A DNA stretch of 64,000 nucleotides from Dehalococcoidia bacterium (GCA_965263065.1 CBDHGH010000003.1:2565592-2629591); one strand, 5' to 3'. Positions 2,992 to 55,751 are shown, numbered from the stretch's first letter. The notes: generated by a model from the letters alone, not told the origin. Program-made: numbers and translations.

Positions 2992-3058
2992 CCACCGAGT
3001 CCATACTCCGCTATACTGACATCGAGACCCGCGAGTCGCGGTCTGACGGCCCCGGCAG

Positions 3059-3182
3059 CACGTGCACACTCGTGCACACTCGTGCACACAGGTGCACACT
3101 CATGCACACTCCTGACCCGCTATGCACCCCAATGACCCGCTCTGACCACCCATGAAACACCAAGAACGCCAATGATCACGGG
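3059..3182. repeat. Array of about 12 tandem 10-bp units (TGCACACTCG x2, TGCACACAGG, TGCACACTCA, TGCACACTCC, then decaying units TGACCCGCTA, TGCACCCCAA ...); inverted copy at 35371-35440
   Basis: Read directly from the sequence; 10-bp periodicity; lies between the convergent purS and hisB genes. Confidence 0.8.
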
Positions 3183-3280: not shown

Positions 3281-3874
3281 CTAGGCCGACAACGTCCCCT
3301 TCGTGCTCGGCACGACCCCCCCTGCCTCGACCACCACCACCGCGTCGCGCAGGGCCCGGGCCGTCGCCTTGAAGGCCGCCTCCATGATGTGGTGGTCGTT
3401 CTCCCCGGCCAGCTGGCGCAGGTGCAAGGCGAAGCGCCCCTCCTGCGCGAACGACTCGAAGAAGTGCGACACCAGGGCCGTCGGCAACTCGCCCGCCATG
3501 TCGGCGCTGAAGCGCAGCCCGATGTCGGTGTATGGCCGGCCACTCAGGTCCAGCGCGGCGTGCACCAGCGCCTCGTCGAGCGGGACGCTGCGGTCCGCCA
3601 TCCGCGCGATGCCCGCCCGGTCGCCCAGCGCCTCGTTGAGCGCCTTGCCCAGCGCCAGCCCGATGTCCTCGACGGTGTGGTGGGCGTCGACGTGCAGGTC
3701 GCCGTCGGCGTGCACCGTCAGGTCAAAGCCGCCGTGCCGGGCCAGCTGCTCGATCATGTGGTCGAGCATGCCGATGCCGGTGGCGACATCGACACTGCCG
3801 CCCCCCTCCAGCCGCAGGACGACCTCGATCTTGGTTTCTTTGGTCTCGCGCCGGACCGAGGCTTCTCGCGTCAT
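3281..3874 (-). CDS. hisB: imidazoleglycerol-phosphate dehydratase
   Basis: Start at MTREASVRRETKETKIEV; sequence DHHIMEAAFKATARAL typical of IGPD; track ORF trimmed by 10 codons. Confidence 0.9.
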   Translation of the reverse strand: MTREASVRRETKETKIEVVLRLEGGGSVDVATGIGMLDHMIEQLARHGGFDLTVHADGDLHVDAHHTVEDIGLALGKALNEALGDRAGIARMADRSVPLDEALVHAALDLSGRPYTDIGLRFSADMAGELPTALVSHFFESFAQEGRFALHLRQLAGENDHHIMEAAFKATARALRDAVVVVEAGGVVPSTKGTLSA

Positions 3875-5119: not shown

Positions 5120-6496
5120 TCAGCGGTCGCTGCGACGCACTTCCAGGGAGCGCGCATGGGCCTGGAGCCCCTCCGCGTGGGCGATCGTGATCGCGTCCTC
5201 GGCGACGCGCTGCAGCAGGTCGTCGCCGGCGCGGAGCACGCTCGTGACCTTGCGGAAGGCATCGACGTGCAGCGGCGACGCGTAGCGGGCGCTCCCCCCC
5301 GTCGGCATGACGTGGGACGGCCCGGCGATGTAGTCGGCCAGCGCCTCCGGGGAGCCCTCCCCGACGAACAGCCCCCCCGCGTTGCGCACCTGGTCCACCG
5401 CCGCCCGCTCGTCGGCCACGATGAGCGCCATGTGCTCCGGCGCGTACTCATTGGCCAGCGCGATCGCGACCGCCAGATCCTCGGCCAGGATGATGCCCCC
5501 CCGATTCTCGAACGCCCGCAGCGCAATCGCGCCGCGGGGCAAGGTGGCGGCCTGCCGCGGCACGATGGCCGCCACCGCGCGGGCGACGCGCTCGCTCGAC
5601 GTGATCAGGATCGGCGCGGCGATGGTGTCGTGCTCGGCCTGGGCGAGCAGGTCGGCGGCGCAGAGTTCCGGGTTGGCGGAGTCGTCCGTCACGACGACGG
5701 TCTCCGTCGGACCGTAGAGCGCGTCGATCCCGACGTCGCCGTAGACCATGCGCTTGGCCAGCGTCACGAAGCGATTGCCAGGCCCGAAGATCTTGTCGAC
5801 GGCGGACACCGACTCGGTGCCGTAGGCGAGCGCCGCGATCGCCTGCGCCCCCCCGACCTTGTAGACGGTGGTCACGCCCGCGATCTCGGCGGCGACCAGC
5901 TTGATCGGGGCGACGGCGCCGCCTGCCTCGTCATCGCCCGGCCCCCCTGCCCCCGGCGACACCGGACTGACGATGCAGACATCCTCCACGCCGGCCACGA
6001 GGGCGGGGATCGCCGTGTGCAGCACGGAACTGGGGTACACCACCGCCGTGCCGGGCACGTACAGCCCCACCCGTGCGATCGGCCGCACGATCTGGCCCAG
6101 GCCGTCGTGCTCGAAGGACTGCATCGCGTGTGCGAGCTGGCGCTGGTGGTAGTCGCGCACCCGCTCCGCGGCGGCCTGCAGCGCGCCGATCAGCCCGTCG
6201 TCGACCGCGGCGCGGGCGGCGGCGAACTCCGCCTCGCTCACGCGGATCGGGTCCGGCGCGAAACCGTCCAGCGCGGCGGAGATGCGTCGCAGCGCGCGGT
6301 CGCCGTCGCGGCGGACCTCGTCGATGATCCGGCGCACGGCGGCGTCCGCGGTCGTCACATCCGCGCCCGGGTAGAGCGTCGCGATCAGGTCGCGTTCGGC
6401 GTCGCTGAGCGCCCCCGCATCGACCACGCGCTTGCGGAAGATCGTGGCCCGCGCCGCAGCCGCGCCACGCACGACGGGCAGCGGCGGCGGCGGCAT
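5120..6496 (-). CDS. hisD: histidinol dehydrogenase
   Basis: Start trimmed to MPPPPLPVV (459 codons); HisD-like throughout (QAEHD, GPSHVMPTGG). Confidence 0.88.
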   Translation of the reverse strand: MPPPPLPVVRGAAAARATIFRKRVVDAGALSDAERDLIATLYPGADVTTADAAVRRIIDEVRRDGDRALRRISAALDGFAPDPIRVSEAEFAAARAAVDDGLIGALQAAAERVRDYHQRQLAHAMQSFEHDGLGQIVRPIARVGLYVPGTAVVYPSSVLHTAIPALVAGVEDVCIVSPVSPGAGGPGDDEAGGAVAPIKLVAAEIAGVTTVYKVGGAQAIAALAYGTESVSAVDKIFGPGNRFVTLAKRMVYGDVGIDALYGPTETVVVTDDSANPELCAADLLAQAEHDTIAAPILITSSERVARAVAAIVPRQAATLPRGAIALRAFENRGGIILAEDLAVAIALANEYAPEHMALIVADERAAVDQVRNAGGLFVGEGSPEALADYIAGPSHVMPTGGSARYASPLHVDAFRKVTSVLRAGDDLLQRVAEDAITIAHAEGLQAHARSLEVRRSDR

Positions 6497-7456: not shown

Positions 7457-8905
7457 ATGCGCAGCCACCGCGACCCCGCACCCCCCGTCGCCGCGCACAG
7501 GCGCCTGCGGACGGCGCTGTGGGGCCTGCTCGCCCTCAGCGGACTGCTGCTGCTGGCCTGCGGCGGCGACAGCGTCGCGCGCGGGGCGGTGCATGTCTCG
7601 GAACTGGACAACGACATCGGCCCGGTGACGGCGGACTTCGTCGACCGCGCGCTGGATCGGGCCGAGGACAACGGCGCGGCCGTCTGGATCCTGGAACTCA
7701 GCACCCCCGGCGGCCAGGTCACCGCCACCGACGACATCACGGAGCGCATCATCGCGGCGCGCGTGCCGGTGGTGGTGTATGTCAGCCCGGCCGGGGCGCG
7801 AGCCGCGTCGGCGGGGACCTTCATCACGATGTCGGGACACGTGGCCGTGATGGCGCCCAGCACCCAGATCGGCGCGGCGACGCCGATCGGCGCGGGCGGA
7901 GAGGAGATCGAGGGGCCGTTGGGCGAGAAGATCATCAACGACGCCGTGGCCGGCATCCAGGGCATCGCCCGCCTGCGCCAGCGCAACGCGGAGTGGGCCG
8001 AGGCCGCCGTGCGCGAGGCCGCCTCCGTGACTGCCGAGGAGGCGGTGGCGCTTGGGGTGGTGGACTTCATCGCCCGCGATCTGAGCGAGTTGATCACGCA
8101 GCTCGACGGCCGAGCCGTTGTGCTGGACGGCTACGTCGACGACGCCGCAGCCGGACCGGAAACGACGATTCGCACGGCCGGCGCCGATGTCGTGCGCTCC
8201 GATATGAACCTGTTCGAGGACATCCTCGACGTGATCGCGGACCCCAACATCGCCTTTCTGCTGCTGACCCTGGGCGGGCTGGCGCTGCTGATCGAGGTCA
8301 TTTCACCGGGACTGGTAGGGCCGGGCGTGGTCGGCGTGATCATGCTGATCTTCGCCTTCTTCAGCCTGGACGTGCTCGACGCGAACGTGGCCGGGATCGT
8401 GCTGGTGCTGCTGGCCTTCGTCCTGATCGGGGTCGAGATCCTGGTGGCGGGGTTCGGGATCTTCGGGATCGGGGGAATCGTGTCTCTGTTCCTGGGCGGC
8501 CTGCTGCTCGTCAGCGACAGCCCTGGGGGCCCAGGCGACGTGTCGATCTGGGTGCTGGTCATCGTGGCGGCGGTGGTCGCGGCGGTCGTCCCGGTGCTCT
8601 GGTTGGTCATCGTGCGCGACCGCAGCAAGGCGCGGAACCTGCCCACCCGGCTGGAAGGGATGGTCGGACGGACCGCCTTCGTGCATCACGCGATCGACCC
8701 CGAAGGTACGGTGAAGGTGGCGGCCGAGCTGTGGAGCGCGCGGGCGCCGGGCGGCCCCATCGCCCAGGGCGTGCAGGTCCGCGTCATAGCGATGGACGGC
8801 CTCACCATGATCGTCGAGCCCCTCGCGGAGGACGTTCCCGGCGAGGCGCCGCCCGGCGGCACACCCCCCTCCTCGCCGCCGCCGCCGGGACCGGCCGATT
8901 CCTAG
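7457..8905 (+). CDS. NfeD-family membrane-bound ClpP-class serine protease
   Basis: 482 aa; N-terminal signal, ClpP-like domain (ILELSTPGG), multi-TM region and a C-terminal OB/NfeD domain. Confidence 0.8.
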   Translation: MRSHRDPAPPVAAHRRLRTALWGLLALSGLLLLACGGDSVARGAVHVSELDNDIGPVTADFVDRALDRAEDNGAAVWILELSTPGGQVTATDDITERIIAARVPVVVYVSPAGARAASAGTFITMSGHVAVMAPSTQIGAATPIGAGGEEIEGPLGEKIINDAVAGIQGIARLRQRNAEWAEAAVREAASVTAEEAVALGVVDFIARDLSELITQLDGRAVVLDGYVDDAAAGPETTIRTAGADVVRSDMNLFEDILDVIADPNIAFLLLTLGGLALLIEVISPGLVGPGVVGVIMLIFAFFSLDVLDANVAGIVLVLLAFVLIGVEILVAGFGIFGIGGIVSLFLGGLLLVSDSPGGPGDVSIWVLVIVAAVVAAVVPVLWLVIVRDRSKARNLPTRLEGMVGRTAFVHHAIDPEGTVKVAAELWSARAPGGPIAQGVQVRVIAMDGLTMIVEPLAEDVPGEAPPGGTPPSSPPPPGPADS

Positions 8906-9765
8906 GCGCCCGGTATCGCCCTCCCGGCATCGCTGCCGGGCGCGGCCCTGCCGCCGAGTGGCGGCGCTGGACTCCCGCGCAGGCTGACCTCGCCGGCGTG
9001 GAAGCGACGCAGGTCGCCGCCCGGCAGCCGCACGAGCAACGCGCCGTCTTCGTCGACATCCTCCGCCGTGCCCTGGATGACGCCGCCGGGCTCTCGAACG
9101 GCGGGGCTGCCGCTCACCGTGACCGGGCGCCCGAGGAGCGCCTGCCGGGACCGCCAGCCACGGAAGATGGCTGGGTGCGCCGCGCCGTCGAAGGCCCGCT
9201 CGAACGAGGCGAAGATCGCGGCCAGCAGGGGCTCGCGCGGCAGCGGCCGCCCCTTCTCGATCGCCAGGCTCGTGGCCGGCCGGTCGAGCTGGGCGTACGC
9301 CGCAGGGTCGAAGTTCACGTTGACCCCCACTCCCACCAAGGCGAAGACGGGGCGGTCGCCGTTCCACTCGCCCTCAATCAGGATGCCGGCGAACTTCTTG
9401 CCCTTGAGCTGGAGGTCGTTGGGCCACTTGATGCGCGGGTACAGCCCAAGCGTCTGCTCGACCGCGTTGGCGATCGCCACCGGCGTGATCAACGAGAGCC
9501 GCTGCAGCTGCGCGGCAGTGGGCCGCAGCACGATCGTGAAGTACAGGTTCTGTCCGGATGGGGAGACCCAGCTGCGGCCCCGGGTGCCGCGCCCGGCGGT
9601 CTGCTCTTCCGCGAGGACCACGGCGCCATGAGCGACGCCCTCCCGCGCCAGGGCGCGAGCGTCGTCCATGGTGGAGCCGGTGCGGAGCTTGTAGACGAAC
9701 TCGCGACCGAGCCAGCGCGCAGTCGAGCGCTGTTCAAGCAGCGTGCGTCGCAGTCGGCTGGACAT
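8902..9765 (-). CDS. birA: biotin--[acetyl-CoA-carboxylase] ligase
   Basis: Signature GRGRRGRSW and KWPNDL motifs. Confidence 0.85.
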   Translation of the reverse strand: MSSRLRRTLLEQRSTARWLGREFVYKLRTGSTMDDARALAREGVAHGAVVLAEEQTAGRGTRGRSWVSPSGQNLYFTIVLRPTAAQLQRLSLITPVAIANAVEQTLGLYPRIKWPNDLQLKGKKFAGILIEGEWNGDRPVFALVGVGVNVNFDPAAYAQLDRPATSLAIEKGRPLPREPLLAAIFASFERAFDGAAHPAIFRGWRSRQALLGRPVTVSGSPAVREPGGVIQGTAEDVDEDGALLVRLPGGDLRRFHAGEVSLRGSPAPPLGGRAAPGSDAGRAIPGA

Positions 9766-50277: not shown

Positions 50278-50402
50278 GCGTCGCTCACGCCGCGCCGGCG
50301 CCGTCGCGCCGCGTTCGCGTTAGTCGGGGCGACCCTTGTGGTCGCCCTGCCGGGCGCCCTGCCGGGCGGAGTCCGGGCGCCCTACCCGCCCGCCTTCCCT
50401 TT

Positions 50403-50477
50403 CCGGTCCCCCCTCTCCAGCGCTTTAGCTGGAGAGGGGGGCAGGGGGTGAGGTTCCCACGCAGGGGGTGAGGTTCC
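50403..50477. repeat. GC-rich hairpin element copy A (CCGGTCCCCCCTCTCCAGC-gcttta-GCTGGAGAGGGGGG + 2x GCAGGGGGTGAGGTTCC)
   Basis: Seen in the sequence; immediately 3' of the stop codon of the substrate-binding protein gene. Confidence 0.75.
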
Positions 50478-50480
50478 GCT

Positions 50481-52859
50481 CTACACCCCGGGCTTGCCCT
50501 CAAACCACGACCGGTACAGCCGTTGGGTGGCGGCGGTGCTGCTGTTGGTCGGGCCGTAGCCCTTGAGCCAGGGACGGTGTGCGACGGTCGGCACGCCCCA
50601 ATTGAAGAAGATCCGGGGCACGTGCTCTTCGAGCAGCTTGGTCTGGATCTCGTCGTAGATCGACACCCGGTTCTCGGTGCCGATGGTGGTGCGTCCCTGC
50701 TCCAGCAGCGCGTCGATCTCGGGGTCGGAGAACTTGCCGTAGTTCCGTGCGCCGTCGGTCTGGTGGCTGCTGGAGAGGATGTCGGGGTCGTGCGCGCCGC
50801 CGAAGCCATTCCAGTGGATGGAGAAATTCCCCGACGACCGCTGGTCCTGGCCCTCCATGCTGGTCGTCTCCTCAAGATCGACCTCGAAGCCGATTTCGGC
50901 CCAGTTCTGCTGGCCCACCTGCGCGTAATGGATGGATCCGTCCCAGGAGCTCATCGGCGGCACGCTCGCCGGGTCGTAGCCGCTGGCGTCGAGCAGCCGC
51001 CGGCCCTCGGCCAGGTCCTCCTCGCGCAGGGCGCCGGAGCGGTAGCCGGGCAGCTCGCGGAGCTCGTCGGCGCTCCACGCGTACACGCCGGCCGCGTGGC
51101 AGATCACCCCGCCGATCTCGATGAGACCTTGGCCCACCGCGAAGAGCTGTTCCCGGTTGGTGGCGAGATGCAGGGCCATGCGCACGCGCGGGTCGGTGTA
51201 GGGCTCGACCTGGAGGTTGAAGTGCGTCGAGAAGCTCCAGGTCGCTTGCATGGGCACTTCGACGAGGTTCTCCTCGCCGACCTGGGCCCGCACGGCCTCG
51301 TTCTCTGCCGGGAAGCCCAGCCACGGGATTAAGAGGAAGTCGGCCTCGCCGGCGACGTACTGTGCGGCCCGATACGCCGCGTCCGCATTCCAGTTCGCCC
51401 GGAACCCGTCGAAGTAGGGGAGCCCTGCGCGGAAGTAGTTGGGGTTGCGTTCCAGCACGGTGAGGACGTCGGCCTCACGGGAGACATGCTGCATGCCGCC
51501 GGTGCCGATGGCGGCCTCGGGGTTGCTGGCGATGCCGTCGTCGCCGAAGGCCTCGACCGCGTCGCGTGAGACCATGAGCACCCGCTGCTCGCCGACGGCG
51601 TAGAGCAGCGGCGCGAACACCTCTCTCGCCTTGATGTGCAGGGTGAGTTCGTCGGTGGCCTCGTACTGGTCGACGGCGGAGAGGAGGTCTTTCAAGATGA
51701 ACTCGGGGTTGTCCTGGCCGAAGCGTGCGAGTCCGAAAGCGGCGTCTTCGGCGACGAACTGACGCCCGTTCAGCGGGGCCTTGTCCTGCCAGTGCACGTT
51801 CGGCTTGATGGCGTAGATGAAGTTGAGCTCATCGACGACCTCGGGCAGCTCCGCCATCGCCGAGGTGAGCACACCGCCGTTATCGAGGTAGTTGATGTGG
51901 TCGTAGATCGGCAACCAGTTGCTGTCGTTGCCGCCGTGGTCGGCGATGGCCGGGTCGAGGATGCCGCCGCTGTCCGCGAAGTAGGTGACGACGCCTCCGT
52001 ACTGCGGGCCGGTGGCCGGGGCCGGCTCGTCCTCCGCCGCCGCCATGGCCGCGCTCTCGGCGGCCTCCTGGGCCGCGTCGGCGGCCTCTTGGGCGGCGGC
52101 GACGGCCGCGGCGGCGGTCTCGGCCGCGGCTTCGGCGGTCTCCTGGGCCGTGGCGGCGGCCTGCCCGGCGGCGGCGGCGGCCTGCCCGGCGGCGGCGGAC
52201 GCCTCCCCGGCGGCCGCCGCGGCGGCGGCAGCGGCCTCGGCGGCGTTGTCGATGGCGGCCTGGGCGGCCGCCGCGGTGGCCGTGCCGGCTTCGACGGCCG
52301 CGGCGACATCGCGGGCGGCCTGGGCGGCGGCCTCGGCCGCCTCGGCGGCGGCGTCCGCGACGGCCGCGGCAGCGGCGTCGCCGGCAGCGCCAGCGGCGTC
52401 GGCGGCCTGGGCGGCCGCTGCGGCGGCGGCTTCCGCGGCGGCGGCCGCGTTGCCGGCGTCTTCCGACTCGGCCGCCTCGGCGGCCAAGGCGGCGGCGGCA
52501 TCGGCGGCGCTGGCCGCCTGCGAGGCGGCGGCGGAGGCCTCGCCGGCGGCGTCTGCCGCGTCGGCCGCAGCGGCGGAGGCCTCGCCTGCGGCGTCTGCCG
52601 CCTCGGCCGCGACGGCGGCGGCGGCGGCGGATTCGGCGGCGCGCGCATCCCCGGCGGCGACCGCCGCGGCGGCGGCCTCTTCCGCGGCCGCGGCGGCCCG
52701 TTCGGCCGCCACGGCGCCGGCGTCGGGCCCGTCGTCGTCGCCGCAGCCGACCAGGGCGAGGCCGGCTGCTCCAACCCCAGCCTTCGCGCTGGCTCCCAAC
52801 ATGGTGCGGCGTGAGATCTTCCGCTGTCGCAGGGTCGTCCAATAGTTCCGGCGGCTCAT
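50481..52859 (-). CDS. ABC transporter substrate-binding lipoprotein (family 5, peptide/nickel type) with Tat signal, lipobox and a roughly 270-aa Ala/Glu-rich low-complexity spacer
   Basis: Tat-signal and lipobox region MSRRNYW...SRRTMLGASAKAGVGAAGLALVGCG; spacer AAAEEAAAAA...; C-terminal SBP_bac_5-like domain; GGAAGGGA RBS; no permease or ATPase genes adjacent. Confidence 0.78.
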   Translation of the reverse strand: MSRRNYWTTLRQRKISRRTMLGASAKAGVGAAGLALVGCGDDDGPDAGAVAAERAAAAAEEAAAAAVAAGDARAAESAAAAAVAAEAADAAGEASAAAADAADAAGEASAAASQAASAADAAAALAAEAAESEDAGNAAAAAEAAAAAAAQAADAAGAAGDAAAAAVADAAAEAAEAAAQAARDVAAAVEAGTATAAAAQAAIDNAAEAAAAAAAAAGEASAAAGQAAAAAGQAAATAQETAEAAAETAAAAVAAAQEAADAAQEAAESAAMAAAEDEPAPATGPQYGGVVTYFADSGGILDPAIADHGGNDSNWLPIYDHINYLDNGGVLTSAMAELPEVVDELNFIYAIKPNVHWQDKAPLNGRQFVAEDAAFGLARFGQDNPEFILKDLLSAVDQYEATDELTLHIKAREVFAPLLYAVGEQRVLMVSRDAVEAFGDDGIASNPEAAIGTGGMQHVSREADVLTVLERNPNYFRAGLPYFDGFRANWNADAAYRAAQYVAGEADFLLIPWLGFPAENEAVRAQVGEENLVEVPMQATWSFSTHFNLQVEPYTDPRVRMALHLATNREQLFAVGQGLIEIGGVICHAAGVYAWSADELRELPGYRSGALREEDLAEGRRLLDASGYDPASVPPMSSWDGSIHYAQVGQQNWAEIGFEVDLEETTSMEGQDQRSSGNFSIHWNGFGGAHDPDILSSSHQTDGARNYGKFSDPEIDALLEQGRTTIGTENRVSIYDEIQTKLLEEHVPRIFFNWGVPTVAHRPWLKGYGPTNSSTAATQRLYRSWFEGKPGV

Positions 52860-52932
52860 CACATGTTCCCTTCCGGTCCCCGGCTGTCCCGTTGTGGGAT
52901 CGCTCGGTGCGTGAGCACGCACAGTATCGCAC

Positions 52933-52959
52933 ATTATAAGCGTGCACCCCCCCCCCCCC
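52933..52959 (-). promoter_or_regulatory. Candidate promoter: perfect TATAAT -10 box (minus strand) 8 nt downstream of a 13-nt G tract (C13 on the plus strand at 52947-52959)
   Basis: Seen in the sequence; lies in an AT-richer island about 75 nt upstream of the substrate-binding protein start. Confidence 0.5.
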
Positions 52960-53087
52960 GTTATGTCATATAGGAAGGAAATTATGGGGTTATCCACCGA
53001 ATTTTTCGGCTTCTCACGCTGTTGGAACCCCCCCCTGTGTCACTCGTGGGGTTCCGGCGTGCGATCGCGCGGGGGAACCTCGCCCGT

Positions 53088-53143
53088 CCGGTCCCCCCTC
53101 TCCATCGCTTCAGCTGGAGAGGGGGTTAGGGGGTGAGGTTCCC
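53088..53143. repeat. GC-rich hairpin element copy B (CCGGTCCCCCCTCTCCATC-gcttca-GCTGGAGAGGGGG-TTAGGGGGTGAGGTTCCC), in the same orientation as copy A
   Basis: Seen in the sequence; an inverted partial motif GGGGGAACCTC at 53071-53084 gives an outer stem. Confidence 0.75.
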
Positions 53144-53253: not shown

Positions 53254-53598
53254 ATGAAGCTGACCTACGCCGTCGTCTTCGAGCAGACGCCCAACAACTA
53301 CTGCGCCTACGTGCCGGACGTGCCGGGCTGCATCAGCACGGGCAAGACCTGGGACGAGATGCAGGCGCTGATCCGGGAGGCGCTCAGCTTCCATATCGAG
53401 GATCTGCTGGAGCAGGGCGAGCCCCTCCCCGAGCCGAAGATGTCCATCAAGCAGGCGATCGCCTGCCACAACGAGCCCATCCCCGAGGATGTCCTCCGGT
53501 CGTACGCCGAGTACGGCGACGACACTCCCACGCTGTCGACGAGGGTCGAGCTCGTGGAGGTGGAGGTTCCGGCCCCGCAGGCGGCGCGGGCGAACTGA
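53254..53598 (+). CDS. HicB-like (UPF0150 family) type II antitoxin-fold protein, orphan
   Basis: Sequence MKLTYAVVFEQTPNNYCAYVPDVPGCISTGKTWDEMQALIREALSFHIEDLLEQGEPLPEP; GGAGAG RBS; no hicA nearby. Confidence 0.65.
   Translation: MKLTYAVVFEQTPNNYCAYVPDVPGCISTGKTWDEMQALIREALSFHIEDLLEQGEPLPEPKMSIKQAIACHNEPIPEDVLRSYAEYGDDTPTLSTRVELVEVEVPAPQAARAN

Positions 53599-53666: not shown

Positions 53667-55751
<2,085 letters not shown>

Follow-up and report, generated by a model that had tools for sequence, protein, structure and literature searches.

Results

A binding-lipoprotein gene in a repeat-bounded cassette

The locus described here lies within a 64-kb stretch of Dehalococcoidia DNA, which in its entirety we refer to as the window. 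Its minus strand encodes a substrate-binding protein (SBP) whose N-terminus carries a twin-arginine signal and a lipobox (…SRRTMLGASAKAGVGAAGLALVGCG), and whose SBP_bac_5 domain is recognised by Pfam at E = 3e-35. Among proteins of solved structure the nearest are those that bind peptides, nickel and opines, all of them distant (best E = 3e-14). From these features the product is predicted to be a lipid-anchored extracytoplasmic protein of the envelope. Between the lipobox and the binding domain there is a low-complexity stalk of about 250 aa, rich in Ala, Glu and Asp (52007-52740, minus strand). The gene and its promoter form a 2.7-kb cassette situated between two direct copies of a 66-nt palindromic repeat that are 88% identical to one another:

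50481-52859, minus strand: coding sequence of 792 aa, SBP lipoprotein with a Tat-type signal, lipobox LVGCG, Ala-rich linker of ~250 aa and SBP_bac_5 domain
53078-53143, no strand assigned: 66-nt palindromic repeat, upstream copy (hairpin z = -5.8)
50393-50458, no strand assigned: 66-nt palindromic repeat, downstream copy, just past the SBP stop codon (hairpin z = -2.6)

The sequence of this element (…CCCCCCTCTCCA…GCTGGAGAGGGGG…GGGGGTGAGGTTCCC) is found 3' of SBP genes in many related loci as well, and a part of it, GCAGGGGGTGAGGTTCC, is duplicated in tandem at 50441-50457 and 50461-50477. The downstream copy probably also works as a terminator hairpin. In L069, whose pyrophosphatase is 94% identical to that encoded in the window, the site is empty: pyrophosphatase, a single copy of the palindrome (L069 4616-4663) and proS follow one another, and both the HicB and SBP genes are absent. 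The SBP unit thus acts as a cassette that can be dispensed with. The palindromic element may both terminate transcription and provide a substrate on which cassettes are gained, lost or shuffled.

No permease genes adjoin the window SBP gene. Downstream of it lie proS on the same strand and then uvrA on the opposite strand, and upstream are a divergent HicB-like gene (53254-53598, plus strand) and an H+-pyrophosphatase gene (53667-55751, minus strand). No HicA partner is recognisable for the HicB-like antitoxin, and a candidate hicA remnant upstream of it ('...SIMKQAGRRRERR') was dropped as it lacks Pfam support; the HicB family is itself present in very many copies in these Chloroflexota (574 homologues at E <= 1e-20). 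At gathering thresholds Rfam has no match in the promoter region, its sole match in the window being a bacterial RNase P RNA class A elsewhere (RF00010, 14630-15032, minus strand, 258.8 bits), and a permissive Rfam scan gave merely chance miRNA-like hairpin matches on the palindromic repeat.

The poly-G tract and the elements around it

Read along the minus strand towards the gene, the promoter region has the order CCTATATGACATAAC-G13-TGCACGCT-TATAAT-GTGC-GATACT-...-GGAAGGGAACATGTG-ATG, and contains the following elements, all on the minus strand:

53024-53055: stem-loop GGAACCCC...GGGGTTCC with a second run, G8 (53035-53028), conserved upstream of G-type promoters (defined below)
52989-52997: GTGGATAAC motif, DnaA-box-like, candidate regulator site, upstream of the -35-like hexamer and unique in the window
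52964-52969: ATGACA, -35-like hexamer (TTGACA in most paralogues), with TAAC between it and the tract
52947-52959: G13 tract, candidate hypermutable element, its 3' end 18 nt upstream of the conserved -10
52933-52938: TATAAT, allele-specific proximal -10-like hexamer, 8 nt after the tract and lacking in other G-type promoters
52923-52931: TGC-GATACT, putative extended -10, the positionally conserved -10 in the promoter alignment of the family
52867-52874: RBS GGAAGGGA, of which GGAAAGGA is kept at the same position in paralogues

A preliminary description of this stretch had placed a C13 run at 52947-52959 of the plus strand, which is G13 at 52959-52947 of the minus strand, and its coordinates are right. 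It exceeds every other homopolymer in the window, the runners-up being of 8 nt. In dinucleotide-preserving shuffles, 13-nt runs occur with a mean of 0.04 and at least one is seen in 3 of 100 shuffles; as the window holds 3 G/C runs of 8 nt or more where ~21 are expected under an iid model, long runs are otherwise depleted within it. The TATAAT hexamer (minus strand, 52938-52933) does begin 8 nt past the tract, as had been described, and is the sole perfect copy on both strands of the 64 kb (mean in shuffles 0.40), so that this hexamer and G13 each occur once in the window. Equally well founded were the AT-rich island (G+C of 54-55% around the promoter vs 70% window-wide), the placing of the start codon ATG at 52859 (minus strand), and the second C8 run at 53028-53035, which proves to be inside the conserved stem-loop. 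The RBS GGAAGGGA is at 52874-52867.

The same description had raised the concern that the run might be a homopolymer sequencing error. This is not borne out: the tract is identical, G13, in L063, an independent assembly of a close strain, and related tract-bearing promoters number more than 30, from at least 10 assemblies of megahit, SPAdes and long-read style. Together these observations argue that G13 is not an assembly artefact. The promoter, signal peptide and stalk of L063 are almost identical to those of the window. Its binding-domain part (~7700-9300, equivalent to window 52068-50542) has dozens of 1-nt indels together with substitutions, the gene being called in three pieces; either it is a pseudogene in decay, or paralogue reads have corrupted the consensus. 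Downstream of the SBP gene in L063, an ABC permease gene takes the place of proS.

We also considered that the tract might lie within a longer ORF and act as a translational frameshift switch. This was rejected, as the frame from GTG 52997, open through the tract in the window, is closed in several paralogues, a Tat signal belongs at the N-terminus, and both the RBS and the start codon at 52859 are conserved.

Promoter geometry with and without a tract

The more distant paralogues (~52-55% identity) are tract-less, and 21 of them have promoters of the form TTGA[CA]A, a spacer of exactly 17 nt, and CATACT ending 54-65 nt before the ATG, and so provide a canonical sigma-70-type geometry calibrated for this lineage. 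Tract-bearing promoters fall into three types:

C-type: TTGACC-TG-C(9-12)-TAGACGT-CATAAT, with the tract inside the spacer, which is 9+n = 18-21 nt
G-type (window included): TTGACA-(2-11 nt)-G(9-23)-(16-18 nt)-[C/T/G]A[T/G]ACT
Q-linker type (L001, L005, L012, L027): TTGACA-(1-5 nt)-G(8-14)-TAGTTT

C-type tracts have lengths of 9-12 nt with a mode of 11, and their spacers cluster at 19-20 nt, while in L009 and L023b, C-type homologues without a tract, the corresponding stretch is 17-18 nt. A spacer of 17 nt is seen in 0 of ~35 tract promoters, so that a simple ON state at 17 nt is not evident. The G-type and C-type promoters were also compared as possible mutual inversions, which was rejected as the reverse-complemented C-type aligns to the G-type, by inspection, only at TGAC.

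The -10 of G-type promoters lies 62-66 nt before the ATG (63 nt in the window) vs 54-65 nt in the canonical promoters, and the 3' end of the tract is situated 16-18 nt upstream of this conserved -10 in 11/11 of them. An extended -10 TG (at -15/-14) is present in 9/11 G-type vs 1/19 canonical tract-less promoters (Fisher p = 3.5e-5). The gain of TG, together with a tract ending 16-18 nt from the -10, fits a promoter in which the -35 is replaced by the tract or the -35 contact is lost. The distances from TTGACA to the -10 are 32, 33, 33, 35, 36, 36, 36, 37, 38, 38 and 42 nt, and these 11 values have no clear helical phase.

In the window, the conserved G-type -10 corresponds to GATACT (52928-52923), which is preceded by TG and lies 10 nt further downstream than TATAAT. 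The preliminary description had taken the tract to be a -35/-10 spacer, at -16 to -28, and this we cannot sustain: ATGACA (52969-52964) stands 25 nt before TATAAT and 35 nt before GATACT, and with 25 nt to TATAAT one-base changes in the tract would not carry the spacer through 17. A consensus scan of the window promoter found no sigma-70-type pair, neither -10 having a -35 partner at 16-18 nt, and a canonical pair at TATAAT was rejected, the sole -35-like hexamer (found by eye) being the one 25 nt away. It is GATACT that is conserved in the family; TATAAT is confined to the window allele and L063, with CATAAT in L067 and CTGGAT or TTGGAT in the other G-type promoters. Its position is the one at which C-type promoters carry their CATAAT -10, so the window promoter resembles a hybrid, having two candidates for the -10. 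On the sequence alignment we putatively assign the promoter to GATACT, relative to which the tract spans -31 to -43; with its 3' end 18 nt upstream of the -10, the tract would then occupy the -35 position and not the spacer.

Association of tracts with the gene family

The genomes closest to the window are Dehalococcoidia/Chloroflexota MAGs. They are likely to be sponge-associated, since several isolate names (RHO1, COS3, IRC3 and SB06xx) resemble those of the sponge-MAG series of Robbins et al. 2021 (PMC8163846). Scanning the GTDB representative genomes with the SBP domain gave 62 loci, and a poly-G or poly-C run of 8-26 nt is present 70-110 nt upstream of the start codon in nearly all relatives that are at least 64% identical. 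Conversely, G/C runs of at least 9 nt number 39 across 596 kb of related loci, and 34 of them are less than 260 nt upstream of the signal-peptide motif of the family. Among the remaining five, the promoter of a truncated family gene and the upstream hairpin of a promoter of this kind account for one each, two adjoin a scaffold gap, and one is unexplained. Several genomes have multiple family genes (at least 11 in CAXXCV01, 7 in OZ244557, 6 in CBDBQC01 and 4 in CBDBNA01).

The flanks of family tracts are of three unrelated kinds, and either strand may carry the run. A TTGAC[ACG] hexamer always precedes the tract in family promoters, and a pure run of at least 8 nt is kept in every tract-bearing promoter despite flank divergence of ~10%. 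Searches of JGI metagenome contigs by exact-flank pattern and N-terminal peptide gave no useful strain-level copies, and exact-protein look-ups with the SBP, proS and HicB gave no match.

Long runs are also seen in two other settings. In L008 (OZ244557) a C12 run at 5842-5853 lies downstream of the SBP cassette, apparently within an unrelated ORF, and could be a coding-region tract or an assembly error. In L040, C19, G20 and G12 runs (3414-3530) are found beside an N run marking a scaffold gap; the paralogue downstream of them has a canonical promoter, and the runs are probably assembly artefacts.

Variation of tract length at orthologous positions

As HicB homologues are multi-copy and not syntenic, the single-copy H+-pyrophosphatase was used as the anchor for the orthologous locus, and the syntenic pyrophosphatase-HicB-SBP locus was recovered from five other assemblies. 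The tracts at this position are:

window: G13
L063: G13
L007: GGGA+G11
L066: GGGA+G11
L068: GGGA+G16
L067: TGAGGTT+G8 (interrupted)

The most direct comparison is between L066 and L068, which are 1.8% divergent over the first 4 kb; over the last 3 kb, comprising HicB, the full intergenic region and 1.7 kb of the SBP gene, they differ by 2 substitutions and one indel, the latter being the 5-nt difference in the tract. Further sets of positional orthologues have C10/C9/G14/C26, C12/C11/G17, C11/C10, C11/G10 and G14/G10/G9/G15, and a single genome has G9, G13, G14, G17 and G23 within ~90% identical, indel-free flanks. Between pairs of promoters with ~90% flank identity the tract differs by up to 6 nt, and pairs with flank identity of at least 95% have equal lengths (C11; G13 for the window and L063). 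Consensus homopolymer lengths from metagenome assemblies carry some error.

The tract is thus polymorphic in length between strains and between species. Comparison with related strains had been proposed in the preliminary description, with uniform length as the contrary outcome; lengths at this locus in fact range from G8 to G16. The proposal of a hypermutable promoter tract of the SBP gene gains from the association with more than 30 promoters and from G11 vs G16 in near-identical strains, although the window's own allele is constant, being G13 in its single comparator assembly too (L063). At the level of sequence comparison the data support a hypermutable promoter tract. G and C tracts occupy the same promoter slot at orthologous positions, and this interchangeability argues for action at the level of DNA.

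Elements upstream of the tract and in the leader

Matches to GTGGATAAC in the fetched loci are concentrated in front of family genes, 11/14 lying 105-165 nt upstream of a tract-bearing family start codon, or 12/14 with inclusion of L016 (C-type promoter, opposite strand). The matches in L023 (1674) and L016 (minus strand) are not G-type sites. The motif is doubled at 21-nt spacing in five loci (L006, L010, L014, L022 and L031, around 3040-3087), and a perfect DnaA-box form, TGTGGATAA, is seen in several loci. The run within the stem-loop is G8 in the window, G7 in L063 and G9 with extra sequence in L015, so that this second run, too, is length-variable. There is in addition a -10-like CATAAT upstream of the tract (52985-52980), partly conserved in G-type promoters, and the leaders of these promoters have small conserved hairpins.

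Concerted evolution and modularity of the cassettes

Promoter type is uniform within a genome, the promoters of CAXXCV and CBDBNA being all C-type and those of CBDBQC all G-type, and yet orthologous positions differ in type between genomes (L003/L013, L011/L054/L025, L026/L030/L010/L008 and others). This implies genome-wide homogenisation of promoters by gene conversion. Between the window and L007 the flanks are 95-97% identical and the cassette 85%, homology resuming exactly at GACATAAC-Gn. The binding domain of the window is closest to that of L001 (94.6% nucleotide identity), notwithstanding that L001 differs in promoter type, signal peptide and linker, the latter being Gln-rich. The same holds for L001, L005, L012 and L027 as a set, which have a shorter Gln-rich stalk and another signal peptide and promoter type, with binding domains 82-95% nucleotide-identical to that of the window. 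Matching binding domains on different promoter and stalk types indicate that promoter-stalk modules and binding domains have been reshuffled among cassettes.

Discussion

A candidate contingency locus

We think it probable that G13 is a hypermutable homopolymeric regulatory tract in the promoter of a cassette-borne SBP lipoprotein gene, that is, a contingency locus. This is the most economical reading of the association with promoters of an envelope family, the -35/spacer slot, the strand symmetry and the length variation among close relatives, and the locus has the features of such systems: a promoter tract of at least 8 nt, length polymorphism between strains with conserved flanks, and a predicted envelope product. 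In this model, each member of the multi-copy family would carry its own poly-G or poly-C tract beside a -35 hexamer, and slipped-strand mispairing would alter the length of the tract. Length would in turn set the distance and helical phase of the TTGACA-like hexamer, the AT-rich stretch and GTGGATAAC relative to the core promoter, such that transcription of each copy could be switched or dialled independently and individual cells within a population might come to differ. For the G-type copy in the window, the tract would lie at the -35 of an extended -10 promoter, TGC-GATACT, in a layout resembling opc and fim, and output could be either graded or on/off. A caution is that a promoter with an extended -10 could be constitutive whatever the length of the tract.

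Alternatively, the tract could be a fixed architectural element, in which rigid poly(dG).poly(dC), a G-quadruplex or an i-motif replaces the -35, insulates the extended -10 or sets basal strength, length differences being tolerated noise. We regard this as unlikely, notwithstanding that the extended -10 TG in 9/11 G-type promoters suggests that -35 contacts may be dispensable, that no locus has a 17-nt spacer and C-type lengths are confined to 9-12 (mode 11), and that the window and L063 both have G13. A structure of set length is hard to square with a difference of 5 nt between near-identical strains, and G-type tracts range from 9 to 23 in one genome with ~90% identical flanks; the interchange of G and C orientations at orthologous positions also speaks against a structure that depends on the strand, for instance a G-quadruplex. 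Less likely again is a single origin of a slippage-prone run in the promoter of an ancestral cassette, followed by its spread through duplication and gene conversion with no regulatory role. Such a neutral by-product would be consistent with the strong concerted evolution and homogeneous promoter type of each genome, with repeat-bounded cassettes that are gained and lost as units, and with interrupted tracts of the kind expected from decay (GGGTA+G9, GGGA+G11, TGAGGTT+G8). However, promoters of three types carry tracts, amid unrelated flanks and on either strand, and the tract is always in the -35/spacer slot, in genomes in which long runs are otherwise depleted; the pure run of at least 8 nt is kept in every tract promoter while the flanks diverge by ~10%, and TGn was gained specifically in the G-type, which points to a promoter adapted to its tract.

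Two further explanations have far less to commend them. If transcription began upstream, for example from the CATAAT at 52985-52980, the poly-G would be part of a long 5' leader and might affect mRNA folding, stability or translation, and the partial conservation of that hexamer in G-type promoters and the conserved small hairpins of the leader would agree with this. We nevertheless consider such an RNA role very improbable, as an acceptable -35 partner for the upstream CATAAT was not found, poly-G and poly-C share a slot while as RNA they would behave in opposite ways, the conserved -10 that follows the tract is 62-66 nt before the ATG vs 54-65 nt in tract-less relatives, and no Rfam match is present. 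Finally, homopolymer length is error-prone on some platforms and the long runs beside the scaffold gap in L040 are probably artefacts, but we give almost no weight to a sequencing or assembly error as the source of G13, which is repeated in the independent assembly L063 and has equivalents in the same slot at more than 30 loci in at least 10 assemblies made with different assemblers.

Implications of the contingency-locus model

A wider version of the contingency-locus model, which we put forward more tentatively and hold to be possible but somewhat short of probable, is that Dehalococcoidia genomes, probably those of sponge symbionts, carry ~5-12 independently switchable cassettes, each with a promoter tract and an SBP lipoprotein with a variable low-complexity stalk, and with palindromic repeats through which cassettes are shuffled and undergo gene conversion. 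No contingency-locus system would then have been described earlier in the Chloroflexota. If so, the set of cassettes could diversify nutrient uptake, or the surface shown to host cells and phages, within a symbiont population. Should tract length control expression, uncultured high-GC Dehalococcoidia would share the bet-hedging logic of pathogens, applied to a large family of transporter binding proteins, with a bearing on the partitioning of substrates among symbionts, on evasion of phage adsorption and host recognition, and on the way in which consensus MAG sequences and metatranscriptomes are read for such genes. With G/C tracts of 8-26 nt in two layouts, the family also offers a natural series in which to study the effect of such tracts on promoters with and without a -35.

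Comparison with known systems

Envelope and surface proteins are the usual class of phase-variable gene, and phase variation by simple sequence repeats is mainly described in host-adapted pathogens (Neisseria, Haemophilus, Campylobacter, Helicobacter, Treponema, Bordetella, Mycoplasma). Our full-text literature searches found no report of such phase variation in Chloroflexota or sponge symbionts, an absence within the literature searched and not a proof.

The lipoprotein genes of the mycoplasmas provide one point of comparison. The vlp lipoprotein family of Mycoplasma hyorhinis has promoter poly-A tracts, and P78 of Mycoplasma fermentans is a phase-variable ABC substrate-binding lipoprotein with its tract in the coding region. 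The family described here resembles vlp as a lipoprotein multigene family with low-complexity or repetitive regions and a promoter homopolymer for each gene, and P78 in encoding an ABC binding lipoprotein. The mycoplasma tracts are, however, poly-A in AT-rich genomes, whereas these are G/C promoter runs in a high-GC genome.

In Bordetella pertussis fim2 and fim3, a C-stretch lies between the activator site and the -10. In Treponema pallidum, the tpr genes (tprE/G/J and tprL) and tp0126 have promoter poly-G tracts of ~7-12 nt or more whose length modulates transcription, and in Neisseria meningitidis the poly-G of porA is situated between -35 and -10 and the poly-C of opc overlaps the -35 (PMC7864442). 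As in tpr, where tract length varies within and between strains, we see a paralogous envelope family with its own promoter poly-G for each gene. The site of the CRP regulator acts together with the tract in T. pallidum, and here GTGGATAAC is a candidate site. Unlike tpr, the products are predicted ABC binding lipoproteins of Chloroflexota (Dehalococcoidia) with 70% G+C; the tracts reach 26 nt and may be poly-C or poly-G on the coding strand, and they belong to repeat-bounded, concertedly evolving cassettes.

The porA layout, which the preliminary description had in effect proposed, has its likeness in the sister C-type promoters, whose tract is in the spacer (9+n), but not in the window copy. 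There 25 nt separate the hexamer from TATAAT and 35 nt separate it from the conserved -10, and the spacer does not pass through ~17 nt by single bases; the C-type spacers themselves, at 18-21 nt, never come down to 17. The G-type layout of the window is matched best by opc and fim: on the putative assignment made above, the tract lies over the -35 position of a promoter with no usable -35, and its length would position upstream elements or an activator relative to the -10. The resemblance is limited in that GTGGATAAC is only a candidate site, the organisms are non-pathogens, and the design is common to many paralogues.

The class of mechanism is therefore well known. The novelty lies in the phylum, and probably also in the lifestyle, a symbiotic one; in the class of gene, ABC binding lipoproteins forming a large family; in the use of G and C tracts in one promoter slot with two layouts (spacer and -35 replacement) in one family; and in the carriage of these promoters on repeat-bounded cassettes that evolve in concert.
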